A stretch of DNA of 64,000 nucleotides from a bacterium (GTDB lineage Bacteria; Zhuqueibacterota; Zhuqueibacteria; Residuimicrobiales; Krinioviventaceae), in assembly GCA_963674595.2 (NCBI GenBank), contig CAXXFV010000016.1, forward strand, positions 352,001 to 416,000, given 5' to 3'. Positions 4,994 to 43,977 of the stretch are shown here, in pieces; the first letter of the stretch is position 1, and every line of letters starts with the position of its first letter. The position numbers and the translations under genes were made by a program. The notes beneath the pieces are model-generated. The model did not search any database, had not been told where the DNA came from, and was given only the letters and a program-made list of their open reading frames with translations.

Positions 4994-5767
4994 ATGGAAA
5001 AAATATTTTTACTGTCAGATGCTCATCTTGGTGCCCAAAATGAGCAGGTTGAAAAATTAAAATCGGAAAAATTGTGCTCATTTTTAGAGTTTGTGTATGA
5101 GCAACATGGCCGTTTGATTATTTGTGGTGATTTGTTTGATTTTTGGTTTGAATATAGTCATGTTGTTCCCAAACTTCATTTTCGTGTTCTGAGCCTTTTA
5201 GCTCGTTTGATTGAAAAGGGGCTTCAGGTAGATTATATTTGCGGGAATCATGACTTTTGGCTTAATTCGTTTATTCGAGATCAGGTTGGAATATCTGTTC
5301 ATCAGGATGAATTGATCATTAACGGTGATTCGCAAAAGATTTATATTCGTCATGGAGACGGGTTGTTAAAGAATGATTATTTATATCGCTGCCTTAAAAA
5401 AATATTACGCAGCCGGATTTGTATTATGCTGTATCGATGCCTGCATCCGGATATCGGTATTCCTGTCGCATTATTTGCGGCTCATCTAAGCCGGAACGCT
5501 GCCAAATCCAGGCCTGATTATTGCGATGTGGACTATCGGCAGTATTCGTTCCAAAAAATTGAGCAAGGTTTTGATATGGTTGTTCTCGGACATACGCACT
5601 GGCCGGCCCTGGAAGCTTATAAAAACGGGTGGTACATAAATCCGGGTATGTGGATGAACAAGTTTACGTTTGCCGTGATTGAGAATAACAAGCCCACTGT
5701 ATTTAGTTGGGATGGCAAACAGCCTCAACCTGTTGAATTAAGCTTACCGCCGGGGAATATAAAATGA
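4994..5767 (+). CDS. lpxH: UDP-2,3-diacylglucosamine diphosphatase (LpxH-like metallophosphoesterase)
   Basis: SDAHLG, GDLFDFW, GNHD, HGD, GHTH motifs. Confidence 0.8.
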   Translation: MEKIFLLSDAHLGAQNEQVEKLKSEKLCSFLEFVYEQHGRLIICGDLFDFWFEYSHVVPKLHFRVLSLLARLIEKGLQVDYICGNHDFWLNSFIRDQVGISVHQDELIINGDSQKIYIRHGDGLLKNDYLYRCLKKILRSRICIMLYRCLHPDIGIPVALFAAHLSRNAAKSRPDYCDVDYRQYSFQKIEQGFDMVVLGHTHWPALEAYKNGWYINPGMWMNKFTFAVIENNKPTVFSWDGKQPQPVELSLPPGNIK

Positions 5768-7098: not shown

Positions 7099-8862
7099 AT
7101 GTTTTATAATCCTGAACGAAAATATATTTTTTACCTTTTTATTTCAATGGCATTCCTTGTTCTTGGGGCGCGGTTGTTTTATCTGCAAATAATCAAAACT
7201 CAAAAGTACACAACACAATCTGAGCGAAATCGTATAAGACGTATTGTGTTAGAACCGGTAAGAGGATTAATTTATGACCGTAATGGTCAGGTTTTGGTTG
7301 AAAACAGACCTTCATATTCCATTAGTGCCATACCCTATGAATGTTTGTCTAATGATTCTACTTTGGTGTTGCTGGCCCAAATACTTAATAAGCCTAAAGA
7401 AGTGATTGTCGAAAAACTCAAAGCTGCGGATTATCCACTGTCGTCTGTTAAAATTGAACGTGACGTATCTCTGGAACAATTGGGTATGGTTGAAGAACGC
7501 GCATTGGAATTGCCCGGTGTTATGCACGATGTGGGAGTTGAGAGAATGTATCCCGGGGGAATAACATCTGCACATTTATTTGGTTATTTGGGTGAAATCT
7601 CCAAGTCGGAACTGGATGTCAGGCGAAAGGACGGCCTTGAACCAGGCAACCTTGTGGGAAAGAAGGGACTTGAAAAACAATATGATACTGTTCTGCGGGG
7701 TAAAAGTGGTTATAATTATGTTGAGGTCAATGCAAGCGGACGGGAAGTTAAAGATGTAGTGCTTGATATTGAAACAGCGCCGTATCCCGGCAATGATATT
7801 TATTTAACAATCGATGTACGTTTGCAAAAACTTGCTGAAGAACTGTTTGCGGAAAAAAGCGGCGGTATTGTTTTGTTGGATGCTATTAACGGTGGTGTTT
7901 TGGTCATGTGTAGTAAACCGGACTATGATCCTGTTATTTTTTCAGGTATTTTAAGCTCTGAAAAATGGCGTCAACTGGTTAATGATGAAAGGCGTCCCTT
8001 GTTTGACAGGATCGTTCAAAGCGAGTATCCCCCCGGGTCCACATTCAAAATGGTTACTGCTGCTGCTGTTATCCAGGAAAATTTGATCGATGTCGAAAAT
8101 GAACACGTCTTTTGTGACGGATATTATAAATTAGGCAGAAGGGCCTACAAATGCTGGAACCAGGATGGTCATGGAAGTGTTGACCTGTTAGAAGCGCTTC
8201 AGGTATCCTGTAATGTGTTTTTTTATAAACAGAGCTTAAAGCTGGATGCTGATGTTTGGGCTGATTATGCAAAAAGGTTTTTGTTTGGAAAATCGACAGG
8301 AATTGATTTGCCCGGTGAAAGTAAAGGTTTGGTTCCTGGCAGGGCTTATTTAAACAAAACCTATGGTGAGAATAAATGGACCAAAGGTACCATGTTAAAT
8401 TTGGGTATTGGGCAGGGCGACTTGCTGGTCACTCCTTTACAAATGGCACAATATGCTATGATTATCGCCAATAATGGTGTTTTTTTCAAGCCTCACTTAT
8501 TGATGAAACAATATGATCCTGTTAAAAAAGCATTTGATTTTTATGAACCGCAATTTATACAGATTGATAGTATTGCAGACAGTGTGTTTGAAATTTTGCG
8601 ACAGGGAATGTTTCGAGTTGTCAATGCAGAACATGGTACTGGAAGAGCATCTGCCCTGAGTAATGTCAAAGTTGCCGGCAAAACCGGTACTGCCCAAAAT
8701 CCACATGGTGATCCTCATGCATGGTTTGTTGGTTTTGCTCCCTATAATGCTCCCCAGGTTGCTATTTGTGTTTTTATTGAAAATGGCGGCGGTGGAGGCG
8801 CTCAGGCAGCCCCAATTGCCAAAAAAATTCTGGAAAAGTATTTTAACCAGGAAGGATTTTGA
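7099..8862 (+). CDS. mrdA: penicillin-binding protein 2
   Basis: RGLIYDRNG, PGSTFK (SxxK), SCN, GKTGTAQ. Confidence 0.96.
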   Translation: MFYNPERKYIFYLFISMAFLVLGARLFYLQIIKTQKYTTQSERNRIRRIVLEPVRGLIYDRNGQVLVENRPSYSISAIPYECLSNDSTLVLLAQILNKPKEVIVEKLKAADYPLSSVKIERDVSLEQLGMVEERALELPGVMHDVGVERMYPGGITSAHLFGYLGEISKSELDVRRKDGLEPGNLVGKKGLEKQYDTVLRGKSGYNYVEVNASGREVKDVVLDIETAPYPGNDIYLTIDVRLQKLAEELFAEKSGGIVLLDAINGGVLVMCSKPDYDPVIFSGILSSEKWRQLVNDERRPLFDRIVQSEYPPGSTFKMVTAAAVIQENLIDVENEHVFCDGYYKLGRRAYKCWNQDGHGSVDLLEALQVSCNVFFYKQSLKLDADVWADYAKRFLFGKSTGIDLPGESKGLVPGRAYLNKTYGENKWTKGTMLNLGIGQGDLLVTPLQMAQYAMIIANNGVFFKPHLLMKQYDPVKKAFDFYEPQFIQIDSIADSVFEILRQGMFRVVNAEHGTGRASALSNVKVAGKTGTAQNPHGDPHAWFVGFAPYNAPQVAICVFIENGGGGGAQAAPIAKKILEKYFNQEGF

Positions 8863-38560: not shown

Positions 38561-39994
38561 ATGTCAGAAAAAGTAGTTGATAATGACCTTAGTAAAATTT
38601 TAATAATTGATGACGAAAAAACAGTACTGGATTCAATTGTAAATCTTTTAAAAAATACAAGTTACAACTGTATTACCGCAACCAGTACTTCCGAAGGAAT
38701 CCGTCTTGTTCGTGCAGAAAAACCTTTGGTTGTTTTAACTGATTTACGGATGGAAACTGAAACTTCTGGTATAGAAGTTCTTGAAGAAGCAAAAAAGATA
38801 GATCCGGATGCTGTTGTATTATTATATACTGCCTATGGAAATGTGTCCTTTGCTGTTGAAGCCTTTAAAAAAGGAGCATTTGATTTTATTCAAAAGGTGC
38901 AAACCCATCACGACATTCTTTTACCGATTGAAAGGGCCTTCAAGTTTGCCAAAATGCAGCGTGAAAACGCCTATTTAAGAAGTAAGCTTGATTTGGTAGA
39001 TGATGGAAATTTTCATGGCGCTATAGGAACAAGCCCGGCAATTCGTGATCTTTTTGAAAAAGCAAAACGAGTTGCCATGACAAATGCCACTGTTTTGGTG
39101 ACAGGAGAAACCGGTACAGGAAAAGAGGTGATTGCACGCGGTTTACATTACCATAGCCAGCGGGCTAATGAACCCTTTATCCCTGTTGCCGTAGGAGACC
39201 TTCCGGATAATTTGTTGGAAGGTGAATTGTTTGGTCATGTAAAGGGTGCTTTTACAGGTGCTACTGTTGAGAAACCCGGATTATTTGAAGCTGCAAATAA
39301 AGGGTCAATTTTTCTTGATGAAATTGGAGAAGTAAGTTTTGATATGCAGCATAAATTACTTCGCGTTTTACAGGAAAGAAAAGTAAGACGTGTGGGAAGC
39401 GTTAAAGAACGGGATATCGATGTTCGGGTTATCAGCGCAACCAATCGTAATCCTGAAGAATTGGTAAAAGAGAAAAAGTTGCGCGAAGATTTGTTTTACA
39501 GATTAAACGTTATTCGTTTACACATTCCGCCAATGCGGGAGAGACGTGAAGATATTCCGGTTTTGGCTTACCATTTTTTGAAAAAGTTTCGCAATACAGG
39601 ACTCATTGAGGTGGAAACAATTTCCAGCGAGGCATTGCTTCTTTTACAACAATATGATTGGCCGGGAAACGTTAGAGAACTGCAGGGTGTTATTGAGAGA
39701 ATGGTCGCCCTGGCCACCCGTCCCGAGCTTCGCCCTGAAGATCTGCCGGATGAAATACGTCCTACAACAAAACGTGTTTATGTTGATACCGCGACAGACC
39801 TGGATTTTAAAACATCAAAAGCTCAAATTACAGAAGCTTTTGAGAAACAGTATATTGAGGGATTGTTGAAAAAGTACGGTGACAATATTACCAAAGTTGC
39901 TGACGCAGCAGGATTAAACAGAAAAACCATCTATCGATTAATTGAGGCACGGGATATTAATTTTCGAAGAAAACCTGGTGATGATATTTTTTAA
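38561..39994 (+). CDS. sigma-54-dependent NtrC/AtoC-family response regulator
   Basis: REC (IIDDE, LTDLRM), GETGTGKE, ELFGHVKGAFTGA, FLDEIGE, WPGNVREL, Fis HTH. Confidence 0.97.
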   Translation: MSEKVVDNDLSKILIIDDEKTVLDSIVNLLKNTSYNCITATSTSEGIRLVRAEKPLVVLTDLRMETETSGIEVLEEAKKIDPDAVVLLYTAYGNVSFAVEAFKKGAFDFIQKVQTHHDILLPIERAFKFAKMQRENAYLRSKLDLVDDGNFHGAIGTSPAIRDLFEKAKRVAMTNATVLVTGETGTGKEVIARGLHYHSQRANEPFIPVAVGDLPDNLLEGELFGHVKGAFTGATVEKPGLFEAANKGSIFLDEIGEVSFDMQHKLLRVLQERKVRRVGSVKERDIDVRVISATNRNPEELVKEKKLREDLFYRLNVIRLHIPPMRERREDIPVLAYHFLKKFRNTGLIEVETISSEALLLLQQYDWPGNVRELQGVIERMVALATRPELRPEDLPDEIRPTTKRVYVDTATDLDFKTSKAQITEAFEKQYIEGLLKKYGDNITKVADAAGLNRKTIYRLIEARDINFRRKPGDDIF

Positions 39995-40019
39995 ACCCGC
40001 ATTAAGCGGGTTTTTTTTT
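39994..40019 (+). terminator. intrinsic terminator
   Basis: AACCCGC-ATTAA-GCGGGTT + long T-run. Confidence 0.9.
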
Positions 40020-40178
40020 GCCCCGGTGGTACCTGGACTGTTGCTTTTTAAATATGTAAGTGGCCTAGAGGCAACAGTATTGTAATTTAAAAAACAAGGG
40101 TTATTAAATAATTTTTTTTTTAATTCCTAAGTTTAATAAAAATATAACAGTGACTAGGGATAAAAGTTTTGCTTTTAT

Positions 40179-40194
40179 TGGCACGATAGTTGTA
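40179..40194 (+). promoter_or_regulatory. sigma-54 promoter with variant -12 for the single-domain receiver gene
   Basis: TGGCAC-GATAG-TTGTA. Confidence 0.6.
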
Positions 40195-40250
40195 AAAGAA
40201 GATGTAAATAAACGGTAAGGTGTTAATTTCATCAAAAAGGTTAATTACGG

Positions 40251-40670
40251 ATGATGCAAGAAGGTAATACGCCCGAAAGAAGAAAAGCAATTCTTGTTGG
40301 TACAATTGATTATCGTATCATTGAAGACTTGAACCGAAGGTTGAATCGAGATGATTTTGATGTTCGGTTTGTCCAAAAAGGTGTTCATTTGTTAACAGAA
40401 ATTTTGGACAATGATATTGATCTGCTTATCCTGGATTTGGATTTAGCTGGGGTTATGGGAGTGGAAATGTTGCCGGTTATTAGGCGGCTGCGTCCACGAT
40501 TGCCCGTTATTTTATTGTCAGATGATTTTACAAGTAAAATCAGACAAACGGCTGCTGAACTGGGAATAACCTATCAGGCCTTCAAATCAGTCAATTCAAC
40601 TGATACAGACGAAATTGTTTCAGCAACAGAAAAGATTATCGAGAAAAGAACTCTTGCTCAGGTCCATTAG
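40251..40670 (+). CDS. single-domain response regulator (atypical receiver)
   Basis: DLLILDLDLAGVMGVEML...LPVILLS...FK; acidic pocket degenerate (ILVGTID). Confidence 0.85.
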   Translation: MMQEGNTPERRKAILVGTIDYRIIEDLNRRLNRDDFDVRFVQKGVHLLTEILDNDIDLLILDLDLAGVMGVEMLPVIRRLRPRLPVILLSDDFTSKIRQTAAELGITYQAFKSVNSTDTDEIVSATEKIIEKRTLAQVH

Positions 40671-40680
40671 ATATAGTTTT

Positions 40681-40781
40681 AAAAAGACAAAGCTACCAGC
40701 CGACTCGCCCAAGTCATCAAAACTGGTAGCTTTTGGGCCACGCAAGAAGAATACAGTGCAAGCCTTTTTCTCTTTTGCGGC
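40681..40781 (-). ncRNA. putative ~100-nt two-hairpin antisense sRNA
   Basis: perfect upstream sigma-70 promoter; hairpin 1 GCCGCAAAAGAGAA/UUCUUCUUGCGUGGC; hairpin 2 with 11-bp stem and GACU-UGGGCG-AGUC top; U-rich end. Confidence 0.65.
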
Positions 40782-40787
40782 ATTAAA

Positions 40788-40816
40788 AATATAGTTATTT
40801 ATAAACAATTTGTCAA
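40788..40816 (-). promoter_or_regulatory. sigma-70 promoter for the antisense sRNA
   Basis: TTGACA-N17-TATATT with no credible CDS downstream on that strand. Confidence 0.7.
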
Positions 40817-41151
40817 CTTAAAACAACAAATTGTTTGTTAATACAACATGGGCATTTTAACGACCTCCTGAATACTGGAAGTTTTGTTCAAGCTTTCCTG
40901 GTTTTTTCTCCCCATCAATAAATTTTTATCAACCCTATATAACTTTGTGAATTTGGTAATTAGCGGAATGAGCTGAATCGACGCTTTTTACACAATAGTA
41001 ATTGGTGGAAAAGTGTGGCATTTGTGTCCATTGTGTGGGACGTGGTAAATTTCTTTATTTACAGTAGCTTAGGTATTTGTTGTTTCTTCTGATATACATT
41101 TGTTAATGAATTTTTTGTAATTGTTTCAAATTTGGGGCATAAGATGGAAAT

Positions 41152-41183
41152 AAAAAAATTATTTACTAAAAAAATTATTTACT
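41152..41183. repeat. exact 16-bp tandem duplication AAAAAAATTATTTACT x2
   Basis: read directly from sequence. Confidence 0.85.
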
Positions 41184-41274
41184 AAAAATTTGTAATTAAA
41201 AAACAATAGTTTACGAGCTGTTGAAACGGACTGAAATTGTCGGTTTTGTGTTTTATAACAAAAAATTGAAATTT

Positions 41275-41290
41275 TGGCACAAACTCTGCT
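41275..41290 (+). promoter_or_regulatory. sigma-54 promoter of EPS operon 2
   Basis: TGGCAC-AAACT-CTGCT. Confidence 0.75.
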
Positions 41291-41300
41291 AAATAGTAGG

Positions 41301-41595
41301 CAGTAAGAGATGATAATGTGATAAAGCTGACTCGCCCAAGTCTTCAGGTTTTATCACATTTGGGTCATGTAAGAAGAATAATTGTTAGGCGGTTATAGTT
41401 TACCTCGAAAATATGCTTACCATTTATTCCTCTTTACTAATCAAATTGTAATCAATCGGTAACCCAAAAACTTTGTTTAGCGGGTTCCCTCACGCGCCTG
41501 TCAAAATCAGTGAAATAAACAGGCATAAATTAACTCGTAGCACTCTTGTGCCGGGTGGAGGATGATGAATAGTGAGGAAAGAGAGAGGATTTAAA
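41301..41595 (+). promoter_or_regulatory. ~295-nt structured 5' leader containing the second copy of the RNA motif
   Basis: AATGTGATAAA/TTTATCACATT stem, GACTCGCCCAAGTC, TGGGTCATGTAAGAAGAATA and further hairpins. Confidence 0.65.
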
Positions 41596-42873
41596 ATGAA
41601 ATTTAAACTTAATTTAGCATCAAAGATACCTGCATTGATACTTGGCTTGTGCAACAATGTTAAAAGCTATCTTTTCATTTTTTTGGTTTTAAGCATAACC
41701 TCTCAGAATGTTTATTCTGGTGCCATTAAGGCAAATTGGGATGCCAATACAGAACCAGATCTAAAAGGTTATAAGCTCTATTATGGTACAGTTCCTTCAG
41801 ATTATTTGAATTGGGAAAGTGTAGACGTTGGTAATGTAAACAGTTATCTTGTTGGGAATTTGGACGAAAATGTAACTTATTATTTTGTTGTAACGGCTTA
41901 TGATTCTTCTGGAAATGAAAGTGCTCCCTCTGATGAAGTAAGTGCTCTGGTCACAGGACCGCAAGCCACTGCATCTGTGAGTGGAGATAGTATTATTGTA
42001 AGATGGACTTTTATTTTAGATGCAGACAGTTATGAAATTTTTCAGGGAACAGAACCTTTCTTTACACCGGGAACACCTGTTGCAACTATAACAGAAAACA
42101 GTTGGATTGATACTTCTTTCCCGCAGGTACCTGACACGGCTGCTTATTATATTGTTAAAGCTATGTCGGGTGGTTCAGTATCTCATACATTTAATACAAT
42201 CGGCGCTTATAACGTTCCCATTAAATATGGTAATAACCTTGTTTCGTTACCATTTGCACAGACAGATTCATCTTTGTGTGGTGTATTGGGAACACAGTTA
42301 CATGGAGCTACAAACGCCGTTCAGGCTGATAAAGTTTATATACGTGAAAATGATGCTTATTCGCAAGCATGGTTGGTTGAAGGAACAACCAGTCCTCTTG
42401 AAGGGAAATGGGTAACACCGGCTGGTGATGGTGAATCCACACTTAAAATTAATCCATCAGAATCATTTTGGATCATTAGTCGCTCAATAGAAGGGGACTC
42501 TCTATTTACAATGACCGGAACAGTAAATCCTGATTCTAATCGTGCTGTTTCACTTGTGCCCGGACCGAATTTTGTCTCTGTCCCTTATCCTGTAGAAGTC
42601 TCTTTAACCCAGGGCGGGCTTAATGAAGAAGGTGTGATCGAAGGTAGTTATTACCTGGCCGGATCTGATAAAGTTATGATGTGGACTGGAAGTAAATATG
42701 AAATTGCCTGGTTGGTTGACGGCACAAATACATCATGGGATGGAAAGTGGGTCAATGAAAGAGGCGACAGCGAAACCACAATGACTTTAAAACCAGGAAG
42801 AGGCTATATCATTTGGATTAAAAACGAAGGCCCTGCCAGAACCTGGAAGTTTCCAAATCCAAAGTATAATTGA
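41596..42873 (+). CDS. secreted protein with N-terminal Fn3 domain and tandem C-terminal repeat domains
   Basis: WDANTEPDLKGYKLYYG...YYFVVTAYDSSGNES; ATG 41596 after GAGGA (track starts at 41572). Confidence 0.8.
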   Translation: MKFKLNLASKIPALILGLCNNVKSYLFIFLVLSITSQNVYSGAIKANWDANTEPDLKGYKLYYGTVPSDYLNWESVDVGNVNSYLVGNLDENVTYYFVVTAYDSSGNESAPSDEVSALVTGPQATASVSGDSIIVRWTFILDADSYEIFQGTEPFFTPGTPVATITENSWIDTSFPQVPDTAAYYIVKAMSGGSVSHTFNTIGAYNVPIKYGNNLVSLPFAQTDSSLCGVLGTQLHGATNAVQADKVYIRENDAYSQAWLVEGTTSPLEGKWVTPAGDGESTLKINPSESFWIISRSIEGDSLFTMTGTVNPDSNRAVSLVPGPNFVSVPYPVEVSLTQGGLNEEGVIEGSYYLAGSDKVMMWTGSKYEIAWLVDGTNTSWDGKWVNERGDSETTMTLKPGRGYIIWIKNEGPARTWKFPNPKYN

Positions 42874-42906
42874 TAATTTAAGATTTTTTTTATAAAGGAG
42901 AATTCG

Positions 42907-43977
42907 ATGAGACATCAGTCATATTTTACTATAACCCTTTGGGTTGCCGTGCTTGCACTATTATTTGGTACGGCTTTGTTTGCAGGGCAAATTGATGCTT
43001 ATTCATTGACCGGAATTTATGACGTTGACGGAATAACCTATTTACAGGGTAATACCACATCCGGTGACCTGGTACAGTTGATCCTTGCAGGCGGAAATGG
43101 ACAGATTGATGAACCGGATACGCTGGGTAATGTAACAGGCGATGATGTGCTTTTAGGCACTTCTCATATCGGTTATGGGTTTCCATTTAATCCTAACGAA
43201 GGCAAATTTTCAACTACATTTACTAATGACCTGTTGGTTTCCGGAGCTGTTGTATACGTTCGTGCCTGGAATGTTGCTGCTGTTACAAGTTCAAATGATG
43301 CCTATGGTGATTCGGAACTGTATACTTTGAACAGTGATTTTGAAGAAAATGATTTCGGTACCTGGAGCTGTGTTGATCTTAACAGCACACCTGTTGAAAT
43401 GACCTCCTTTAAAGTCTCTACAAAATCCGGAGTAACCGTCCTTGAATGGACAACTCAAACAGAGACCGATAATTTGGGTTTTTATGTTTATCGTTCAAAA
43501 TACAAAACCGGTAAACGTGAACGTTTAAACAGTAAAATTATTCCTGGCGCAATTAATTCCGAAGTTCGTCATGATTATGAATTTGCAGATCGTAAAATAG
43601 AATCTCAAACTGAATATTATTATTGGATTGCTGATATATCTGTTAATGGAAGCGCCATTTTTCATGGTCCCCAGAAAATTGTAACAGCCGCCAAACCGGA
43701 TCAATACAAGCTTGATCAAAATTTCCCAAATCCTTTTAACCCGACAACAACCATTCAATATGCACTTAAAGATGATGGTTTTGTAAGTCTTCAGATTTTT
43801 AATATCCGCGGTCAGCTTGTTCGCAATTTAGTAAATTCAAATCAGTTCTCTGGTGAACATGCCATCATGTGGGATGGTATGTCGGATAACGGAATGCATG
43901 TGGCCTCCGGCATTTACTTTTTCCGAATTAAAGTAAATGACTATGTTGAAACACGAAAAATGTCTTTAATGAAATAG
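42907..43977 (+). CDS. secreted protein with FlgD-Ig/T9SS type A-like C-terminal domain
   Basis: signal peptide, TPVEMTSF, LDQNFPNPFNPTTTIQY...IFNIRGQLVR...WDG...SGIYF...KMSLMK. Confidence 0.88.
   Translation: MRHQSYFTITLWVAVLALLFGTALFAGQIDAYSLTGIYDVDGITYLQGNTTSGDLVQLILAGGNGQIDEPDTLGNVTGDDVLLGTSHIGYGFPFNPNEGKFSTTFTNDLLVSGAVVYVRAWNVAAVTSSNDAYGDSELYTLNSDFEENDFGTWSCVDLNSTPVEMTSFKVSTKSGVTVLEWTTQTETDNLGFYVYRSKYKTGKRERLNSKIIPGAINSEVRHDYEFADRKIESQTEYYYWIADISVNGSAIFHGPQKIVTAAKPDQYKLDQNFPNPFNPTTTIQYALKDDGFVSLQIFNIRGQLVRNLVNSNQFSGEHAIMWDGMSDNGMHVASGIYFFRIKVNDYVETRKMSLMK

Follow-up and report, generated by a model that had tools for sequence, protein, structure and literature searches.

The stretch of DNA analysed here, referred to below as the window, comprises 64,000 nucleotides (nt) of contig CAXXFV010000016.1 (positions 352,001 to 416,000 of the forward strand; GenBank assembly GCA_963674595.2) from a bacterium of the family Krinioviventaceae. 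Between a gene for a receiver-only response regulator and the start of an exopolysaccharide (EPS) operon it carries two same-orientation copies of one element, 627 nt apart (copy 1, 40689–40753; copy 2, 41315–41380). The original prediction, made from the sequence of the window, held that copy 1 is transcribed from the minus strand as a small RNA (sRNA) which controls the EPS operon in trans by antisense pairing with copy 2 in the leader of the operon. The gene for this sRNA would converge with the response regulator gene and diverge from the EPS operon. The proposal is supported, at the level of sequence, by the conserved promoter and terminator of copy 1, the co-occurrence of the two copies in relatives, the covariation of their stems and the strand asymmetry of their differences, and we consider it fairly probable that the copy 1 sRNA is a dedicated antisense regulator, about 100 nt long, of the EPS leader.

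The two copies share an inner-hairpin motif, GACTCGCCCAAGTC, which is exact at 40702–40715 and 41329–41342, and a 20-nt purine-rich stretch, block B (TGGGYCAYGYAAGAAGAATA; 40734–40753 and 41361–41380), with the same spacing of 18 nt between the two in each copy. With up to two mismatches allowed, GACTCGCCCAAGTC has two matches compared to 0.16 expected (two are reached in 1 of 100 shuffles), and for block B the expectation is 0.04, with two reached in none of 100 shuffles. In each copy an 11-bp stem encloses the inner hairpin, AAAGCTACCAG/CTGGTAGCTTT in copy 1 (40689–40699/40723–40733) and AATGTGATAAA/TTTATCACATT in copy 2 (41315–41325/41350–41360); these stems are unrelated in sequence, yet both pair. 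Block B differs between the copies at three positions, copy 1 having C and copy 2 T at each. All of this is as the original prediction had described it, alignment of the two copies confirming the direction of the three differences. A gapped two-block pattern and looser scans found just these two copies in the 6,618,339-base genome. The prediction had recognised no Rfam family in the element, and a scan of the whole window at gathering scores returned only a tRNA elsewhere; within 40500–41700, at E-values up to 10, the best match reached 22.1 bits against a gathering score of 79, a ctRNA_p42d match reached 15.8 bits against 50, and no Rfam CopA or ctRNA family was reached. The element was also without a match among 72,556 plasmid and 50,697 phage records, and the suspicion that it might be a known repeat or insertion sequence end found nothing in these comparisons to sustain it.

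Read on the minus strand, copy 1 has the anatomy of an sRNA gene. A −35 hexamer TTGACA (40811–40816) and a −10 hexamer TATATT (40788–40793), 17 nt apart, match the consensus at 11 of 12 positions and form the best promoter-like site in 40000–42000; both this promoter and the U-rich end that had been predicted with it are borne out. Transcription would start about 7 nt past the −10 hexamer and run to the U-run, giving an RNA of about 98–101 nt (40681–40781, minus strand) with a predicted folding energy of −35.4 kcal/mol. In the predicted fold a 5' hairpin, H1 (40737–40781), has as its 3' arm the CU-rich complement of block B, identified by sequence comparison as UAUUCUUCUUGCGUGGCCCA (40734–40753), and a 3' hairpin, H2 (40689–40733), forms the terminator stem, followed by GUCUUUUU (40688–40681). 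H2 also holds the inner hairpin, GACU-UGGGCG-AGUC (40702–40715), which presents the proposed recognition loop UUGGGCG (predicted unpaired probability 0.71). We infer that copy 1 is an 80–100-nt sRNA gene with a sigma-70-type promoter and an intrinsic terminator. Eight sequencing runs were found, one of them on record as RNA. Over 39000–43000 the RNA run yields three 151-nt contigs of depth 2 (40227–40377, 40758–40908 and 41590–41740), which are perhaps carried-over DNA and do not show strand or ends; one of them spans the predicted sRNA promoter and none covers 40681–40757.

Copy 2 lies on the plus strand behind a sigma-54-type promoter, TGGCAC-N5-CTGCT (41275–41290). The predicted EPS transcript start falls near 41301, about 14 nt before copy 2, in agreement with the original prediction. 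The leader would open with a hairpin (41315–41360) whose outer stem presents the target inner hairpin, GACU-CGCCCA-AGUC (41329–41342; predicted unpaired probability 0.98), with a loop complementary to that of the sRNA, so that the predicted folds place UUGGGCG in the sRNA loop and CGCCCAA in the leader loop as had been claimed. It is followed by the target block B, UGGGUCAUGUAAGAAGAAUA (41361–41380), which sequence comparison and duplex energy point to as a second pairing site, and the purine-rich part of block B is predicted to pair with downstream CU-rich UUAUUCCUCUUUAC in a third leader helix (41369–41437), an equivalent of which is found in the leaders of relatives. A pseudoknot between GCCC of the loop and GGGC after the stem was considered and dropped, since genomes G002 and G018 have GAGYC at that place and an unchanged loop.

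A second conserved leader element lies at 41484–41530, about 100 nt before the start codon, and consists of GGUUCCCUCAC, a few bases, and a hairpin opened by CUGUC. It is also present at loci L004, L153 and L141, and occurs in long leaders only. Its hairpin is long and G-C-rich in G001, L153 and L141, with a short U-run after it in G001 and L153. An attenuator is one possible role for it, a further anti-ribosome-binding-site element another.

The first gene of the EPS operon encodes a 425-aa fn3-domain protein (41596–42873, plus strand), and in nine loci copy 2 is followed by an fn3 homologue that has a strong ribosome-binding site. After the fn3 gene of the window come genes for a protein with a type IX secretion tail, Wza-like and Wzz-like proteins and an AAA ATPase, and same-strand genes continue without interruption to the end of the window, over at least 22 kb, where a surface-polysaccharide operon of about 20 kb had been predicted. 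The best NCBIfam families for the EPS genes are models of the XrtA/PEP-CTERM locus (PrsR, export, chain-length and ATPase), but the scores do not reach the curated cut-offs (368.9 vs 502.6, 106.4 vs 180, 181.1 vs 278.85 and 236.6 vs 324.5 bits), and judged by these scores the target locus is related to the XrtA/PEP-CTERM type and is not a member of it.

On the other side of the sRNA gene, the response regulator (139 aa, 40251–40670, plus strand; Pfam Response_reg) ends 10 nt from the sRNA 3' end. A homologue of it directly adjoins the sRNA 3' end in all 14 other loci. Further 5' lie two histidine-kinase genes and a gene for a sigma-54 activator with a receiver domain (38561–39994), and an rpoN gene is present in the source genome. 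The response regulator gene has its own sigma-54-type promoter (TGGCAC-N5-TTGTA, 40179–40194), and an intrinsic terminator at 39995–40020 lies after the activator gene and ahead of this promoter, so that the mRNA converging on the sRNA gene is probably sigma-54-dependent as well. By a simple pattern, a sigma-54-type promoter precedes the response regulator gene in 8 of 12 loci. About 250 nt 5' of the EPS sigma-54 promoter lies an inverted repeat, TGTCCA-N-TGGGACA (41022–41045), which is probably the binding site of the activator encoded upstream; TGTCC/GGGACA-like half-sites recur in relatives, including those that have no sRNA gene. Between this enhancer-like site and the promoter there is a tandem direct repeat of AAATTATTTACTAAAAA at about 41153–41188, with a similar ATTATTTACTAAAAAA in G001 (L004), which may be a candidate site for a bending protein of the IHF type.

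Distribution, conservation and covariation

A covariance model (R1) built from the window's two copies found homologues in 10 of 61 related genomes, the window's own counted, including 8 of 18 in the same family and one weak partial match in a neighbouring family; this corresponds to 9 of 19 genomes for the whole family and 10 of 43 for the whole order. An unfiltered search of the loci revealed a weaker second copy on the same strand, 420–775 nt away, in L004, L005, L006, L008, L009, L010 and L011, and two further genomes of genus g7 with a diverged pair bring the family total to 11 of 19. A scan of metagenomes added six distinct contigs: with 19-mers it returned 43 loci, ten of which have R1 E-values below 1e-5, with L156 a duplicate of L147, L159 a duplicate of L141 and L168 the G005 contig. 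A 16-mer scan of genome contigs gave five real loci among the matches listed (80 loci), all at places already found. The match in the neighbouring family (L012 in G034, at about 1501–1545) is a lone partial hairpin (GGCUACCGG...CCGGUAGCC, inner loop CGCCAAA) resembling the terminator stem of the sRNA; it lies in a different gene context, is followed by a plus-strand terminator-like hairpin and has no second copy or TTGACA promoter in view. For these reasons it was not counted as a homologue.

The signals bracketing copy 1 were compared in 15 sRNA-sense sequences, from nine family genomes and six metagenome contigs. All 15 show the same order on the minus strand, namely TTGAC(A/T), 17 nt, TATAT(T), a variable hairpin, a conserved hairpin with inner GACUUGGGCGAGUC, and a U-run. 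The TTGAC and TATAT cores are invariant in the 15 aligned loci, where the spacer and flanks vary; in genus g7 the −10 hexamer is TAAATT. In the plus sense, no U-rich stretch follows the copy 1 element in the loci read. The predicted sRNA measures 79–98 nt across the homologues and has two hairpins in every fold, the one at the H1 position forming in all 15 despite differing sequence. The inner hairpin is invariant in 13 of the 15 sRNA genes found with model R1, and its loop is UUGGCG in genus g7.

On the leader side, a sigma-54-type promoter of the form TGGCAY-N5-xTGCx stands before copy 2 in each of ten pairs, and the distance from promoter to inner hairpin is 53–68 nt in most pairs and about 177 nt in the G001 group. 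In the genus g7 leader the −12 element is TGGC.

Both elements occur together in ten genomes and two metagenome contigs. Both are absent from five genomes (G013, G017, G008, G015 and G009) in which the locus of regulator, enhancer-like repeat, sigma-54 promoter and fn3 gene is intact, and in these the leader is short and the regulator gene has an ordinary plus-strand terminator. In G003 the leader side alone is visible, and it is without copy 2. None of the genomes examined has one element alone in an intact locus.

The original prediction had proposed a test of covariation among homologues, and the outer stem does covary. In a structure alignment of 23 elements (14 rows of copy 1 and 9 of copy 2), fitted to the model and so somewhat favouring structure, all 11 pairs of the outer stem change on both sides, in keeping with stems that differ between the copies. 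The cells of this stem are paired in 94.5% of cases compared to 76.0% in shuffles, none of 500 shuffles reaching the observed value, and sliding the partners lowers the paired fraction to 20–42%. The wobble pairs of the stems also differ in sense between the copies. In the 14 rows of copy 1 there are no plus-sense G-U pairs and four A-C pairs, an A-C on the plus strand being a G-U on the minus strand, and in the nine rows of copy 2 there are 11 plus-sense G-U and two A-C pairs (Fisher p = 0.006, for rows that are not independent). It may be that the A-C cells of copy 1 are no more than unpaired ends of the stem.

Complementarity of the predicted sRNA and the leader

Copy 2 is a paralogue of the sRNA gene and has the same orientation, which makes two blocks of the sRNA complementary to the leader; as the copies are colinear, each identical position is a Watson-Crick pair between the copy-1 minus RNA and the copy-2 plus RNA. 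The blocks are the 14-nt inner hairpin, with loops UUGGGCG in the sRNA and CGCCCAA in the leader, and block B; between the sRNA and the leader, the outer stems on which the loops are displayed show no such complementarity. In the pair from the window, the calculated duplex energies are −12.8 kcal/mol for the loops, −28.7 kcal/mol for the inner-hairpin block and −32.7 kcal/mol for block B.

According to the original prediction, the C-to-T differences yield G-U wobbles only when copy-1 minus pairs with copy-2 plus, and this proved correct. Block B paired in the mirror orientation reaches −19.5 kcal/mol compared to −32.7. Among 11 pairs (G011 having been dropped as a near-duplicate of G001), block B contains 173 identities, 21 transitions that become G-U pairs between minus-strand sRNA and plus-strand leader, and four that become A-C, a bias with a binomial p of 0.0009, for events that are not independent and several of which lie in one column. 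Block B begins with GGGCC/GGGTC in most genomes, with GAGCC/GAGTC in G002 and with GAGTC in both copies of G018; the remainder of block B likewise varies in step within genomes. In genus g7 both loops are one base shorter, with UUGGCG/CGCCAA in place of UUGGGCG/CGCCCAA. The cognate sRNA or a near-identical sister gives the best duplex for eight of ten leaders, and the whole-RNA duplex beats its mirror in eight of ten pairs, in folding that ignores intramolecular structure and serves only as a rough test of orientation and cognate choice. Between four and seven loop pairs are kept overall, with target loops more variable than the sRNA loop. The homologues thereby conserve both the antisense promoter (15 of 15 loci) and loop complementarity of at least four G-C-rich bases (12 of 12 pairs), the two features whose common loss had been named as telling against the prediction.

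The loops are predicted to be exposed, with mean unpaired probabilities over 11 pairs of 0.71 (sRNA) and 0.97 (leader), and block B is predicted to be mostly paired (0.38 and 0.30). Since the loops are accessible and block B is largely paired in both RNAs, we propose that the loops would meet first. The exposed loops of sRNA and leader would kiss, and pairing would then spread into block B, which is otherwise bound in a helix in each RNA. The leader would thus be remodelled and expression of the EPS operon lowered, through reduced translation of the first gene or through cleavage of the duplex. Repression is favoured over activation as the sign of this control by analogy, because most antisense RNAs repress. 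The CU-rich partner of block B resembles an anti-ribosome-binding-site sequence in every leader, and in G002 and G018 GCUCACCU in this region is complementary to AGGUGAGC of the ribosome-binding site; an anti-Shine-Dalgarno switch is kept as a suggestion from these models.

Known systems and alternative explanations

The original prediction had likened the pair to the antisense RNAs CopA/CopT of plasmid R1 and Inc RNA/repZ of ColIb-P9. The likeness holds for the design, namely a short structured antisense RNA, a hairpin in the leader and G-C-rich complementary loops. The loop itself reads UUGGGCG in 13 of the sRNA genes, with UUGGCG in genus g7. The hexanucleotide UUGGCG of Inc RNA is reportedly named in the title of a paper by Asano et al. 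from 1998, and UUGG of the sRNA loop fits the YUNR U-turn pattern by sequence. The inhibitory CopA-CopT complex is not a full duplex, and the complex proposed here would likewise be unable to become one. The comparison fails in other respects. The sRNA is not cis-encoded, since 627 nt separate its gene from the target, and complementarity is confined to the 14-nt and 20-nt blocks; the system is chromosomal (no match in the 72,556 plasmid records) and its target would be an EPS operon, not a replication gene; and the Rfam CopA and ctRNA models are not matched. With an sRNA encoded away from its target, and with stems that lack complementarity to those of the target, the likeness is one of design and not of family membership.

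The gene arrangement matches that of OrzO/ZorO, IstR-1/TisB and OhsC/ShoB, in which the sRNA gene lies beside its target in the opposite direction with its own promoter and terminator. As in the OrzO/ZorO type, the complementarity is short, involves the 5' untranslated region of a single target and comes from a local repeat. The targets of that type are small toxic peptides, whereas here they would be a 425-aa fn3 protein and EPS export genes, and here there are two pairing blocks around a stem that is not complementary. In OxyS-fhlA, a chromosomal trans-acting sRNA recognises its mRNA through exposed hairpin loops and not through a linear seed, as is proposed here. OxyS differs in that it has many targets and depends on Hfq, whereas the sRNA considered here has a single complementary site in the genome and no Hfq gene was found (PF17209 gave no match in the 97.56%-complete source genome, and control genomes scored). 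By this search the pair falls outside the Hfq-dependent class of trans-encoded sRNAs, and the absence of an Hfq match fits recognition driven by structure.

A number of observations weigh against an antisense role. Minus-strand transcription of copy 1 is read from the geometry of promoter and terminator, and the TTGACA/TATAAT consensus may not be that of this lineage. By free energy, the 5' hairpin is more stable in the minus sense in nine of 15 homologues, in the plus sense in five and equally so in both in one, and the copy-2 hairpin is the more stable one in the plus sense in only seven of 11. In block B, four transitions and seven transversions break pairing and there are four gap positions besides; many of the C-to-T differences share one column and may descend from one old event, and gene conversion between the copies could produce co-variation within genomes without any pairing. 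Target loops vary (CGCCCAA, CGCCCA, CGCCAG, CGCCCC and CGCCC), leaving four to five loop pairs in several genomes, and in two of ten pairs the mirror whole-RNA duplex is the better one. Nine leaders were folded free and with both sRNA sites blocked. Blocking made the ribosome-binding site less likely to be unpaired in six of them, more likely in two and no different in one, mostly by small amounts, which is inconsistent as the signature of a switch. Finally, contig L147 has an sRNA gene (7243–7394) beside the regulator, but the gene downstream is another one and copy 2 is missing from the 3.9 kb searched. Contig L141 has a copy 2 (reverse complement, 5151–5225) behind a sigma-54 promoter, and upstream of it there is neither a regulator gene nor, over 1.3 kb, an sRNA gene. 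These two contigs suggest that the parts are separable in some genomes and are still kept.

The original prediction had itself raised the alternative that both copies are same-sense protein-binding RNA structures. They would then be plus-sense motifs for one protein or ligand, in the 3' untranslated region of the regulator and in the EPS leader, with no antisense pairing. In favour of this, the copies share their orientation and every part of their architecture, from the outer stem and inner hairpin through a 7-nt internal loop and block B to the helix that follows; folding of the helix behind copy 1 is no worse in the plus sense for six of 15 homologues; and the response regulator gene reads into copy 1 with no other terminator in view. 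We nevertheless regard it as quite improbable, given that a promoter and a U-run terminator on the opposite strand bracket copy 1 in 15 of 15 loci, that no U-run follows the element in the plus sense, and that plus-sense G-U pairs number none in copy-1 stems compared to 11 in copy-2 stems. It also leaves the bias of 21 transitions to four unexplained and has no Rfam family to point to; and a class of same-sense motifs or riboswitches would have every copy transcribed in the motif's own sense, whereas copy 1 here bears the signals of transcription in the opposite one. That the repeats act instead as DNA, as protein-binding sites, cruciforms or the ends of a mobile or repetitive element, might be suggested by the presence of two direct repeats within one intergenic regulatory region that also has enhancer-like inverted repeats. 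There are, however, just two copies per genome at constant syntenic places and no plasmid or phage match, and the compensatory turnover of the stems together with strand-specific wobble pairs indicates RNA, which makes a DNA role very improbable indeed.

An RNA made from the minus strand of copy 1 could also be real and yet work mainly in cis, on the 3' end of the convergent regulator mRNA, by interference or duplex cleavage, the likeness to the EPS leader being then a relic or secondary. In all 14 other loci the sRNA gene converges on the regulator gene and comes within about 10 nt of its end, the regulator has its own sigma-54-type promoter in eight of 12, and read-through from it would form a perfect duplex with the sRNA. 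Set against this, both complementary blocks of the leader have been kept across at least eight genera as the stems turned over, gain or loss of the sRNA gene goes with that of the leader element, and in genus g7 the loop changes in both copies, where a relic would decay. We therefore think it unlikely that the cis role is the principal one. The locus might also be a threshold circuit of three RNAs derived from one duplicated element, in which the 3' end of the regulator mRNA, carrying copy 1 in the plus sense, resembles the EPS leader and is a perfect decoy for the sRNA; this we put forward as a speculative possibility with little more than an outside chance of being right. The sRNA gene would have arisen from a tandem copy of the target leader captured by a promoter on the opposite strand. 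Firing of the sigma-54 activator would then produce a regulator transcript that both collides with sRNA transcription and soaks up the sRNA, and the EPS operon would be released in a switch-like manner, in a lineage in which no Hfq was found.

Implications

A paper on PEP-CTERM loci describes, in the part available to us, only DNA sites upstream of such genes (PMC1569441). In the literature on small RNAs of PEP-CTERM or sigma-54 exopolysaccharide loci and on kissing trans-encoded sRNAs, supplementary files not covered, we found no description of the element. Judged from sequence comparison, it represents a new sRNA family of a known mechanistic kind, and the comparative support for it is unusually clean.

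Almost nothing is known of RNA regulators in this uncultured lineage. The pair described here is defined purely by comparative genomics, and the locus, which offers a clear promoter and terminator, two blocks for pairing and compensatory variants that occur naturally, is ready for a reporter test. It would also be a clean case of an sRNA gene paralogous to the leader of its own target, which bears on the origins of bacterial sRNAs. If the antisense reading is correct, a post-transcriptional layer would be added to the sigma-54 control of surface polysaccharide loci, and the sRNA would probably tune polysaccharide production by RNA-RNA pairing.

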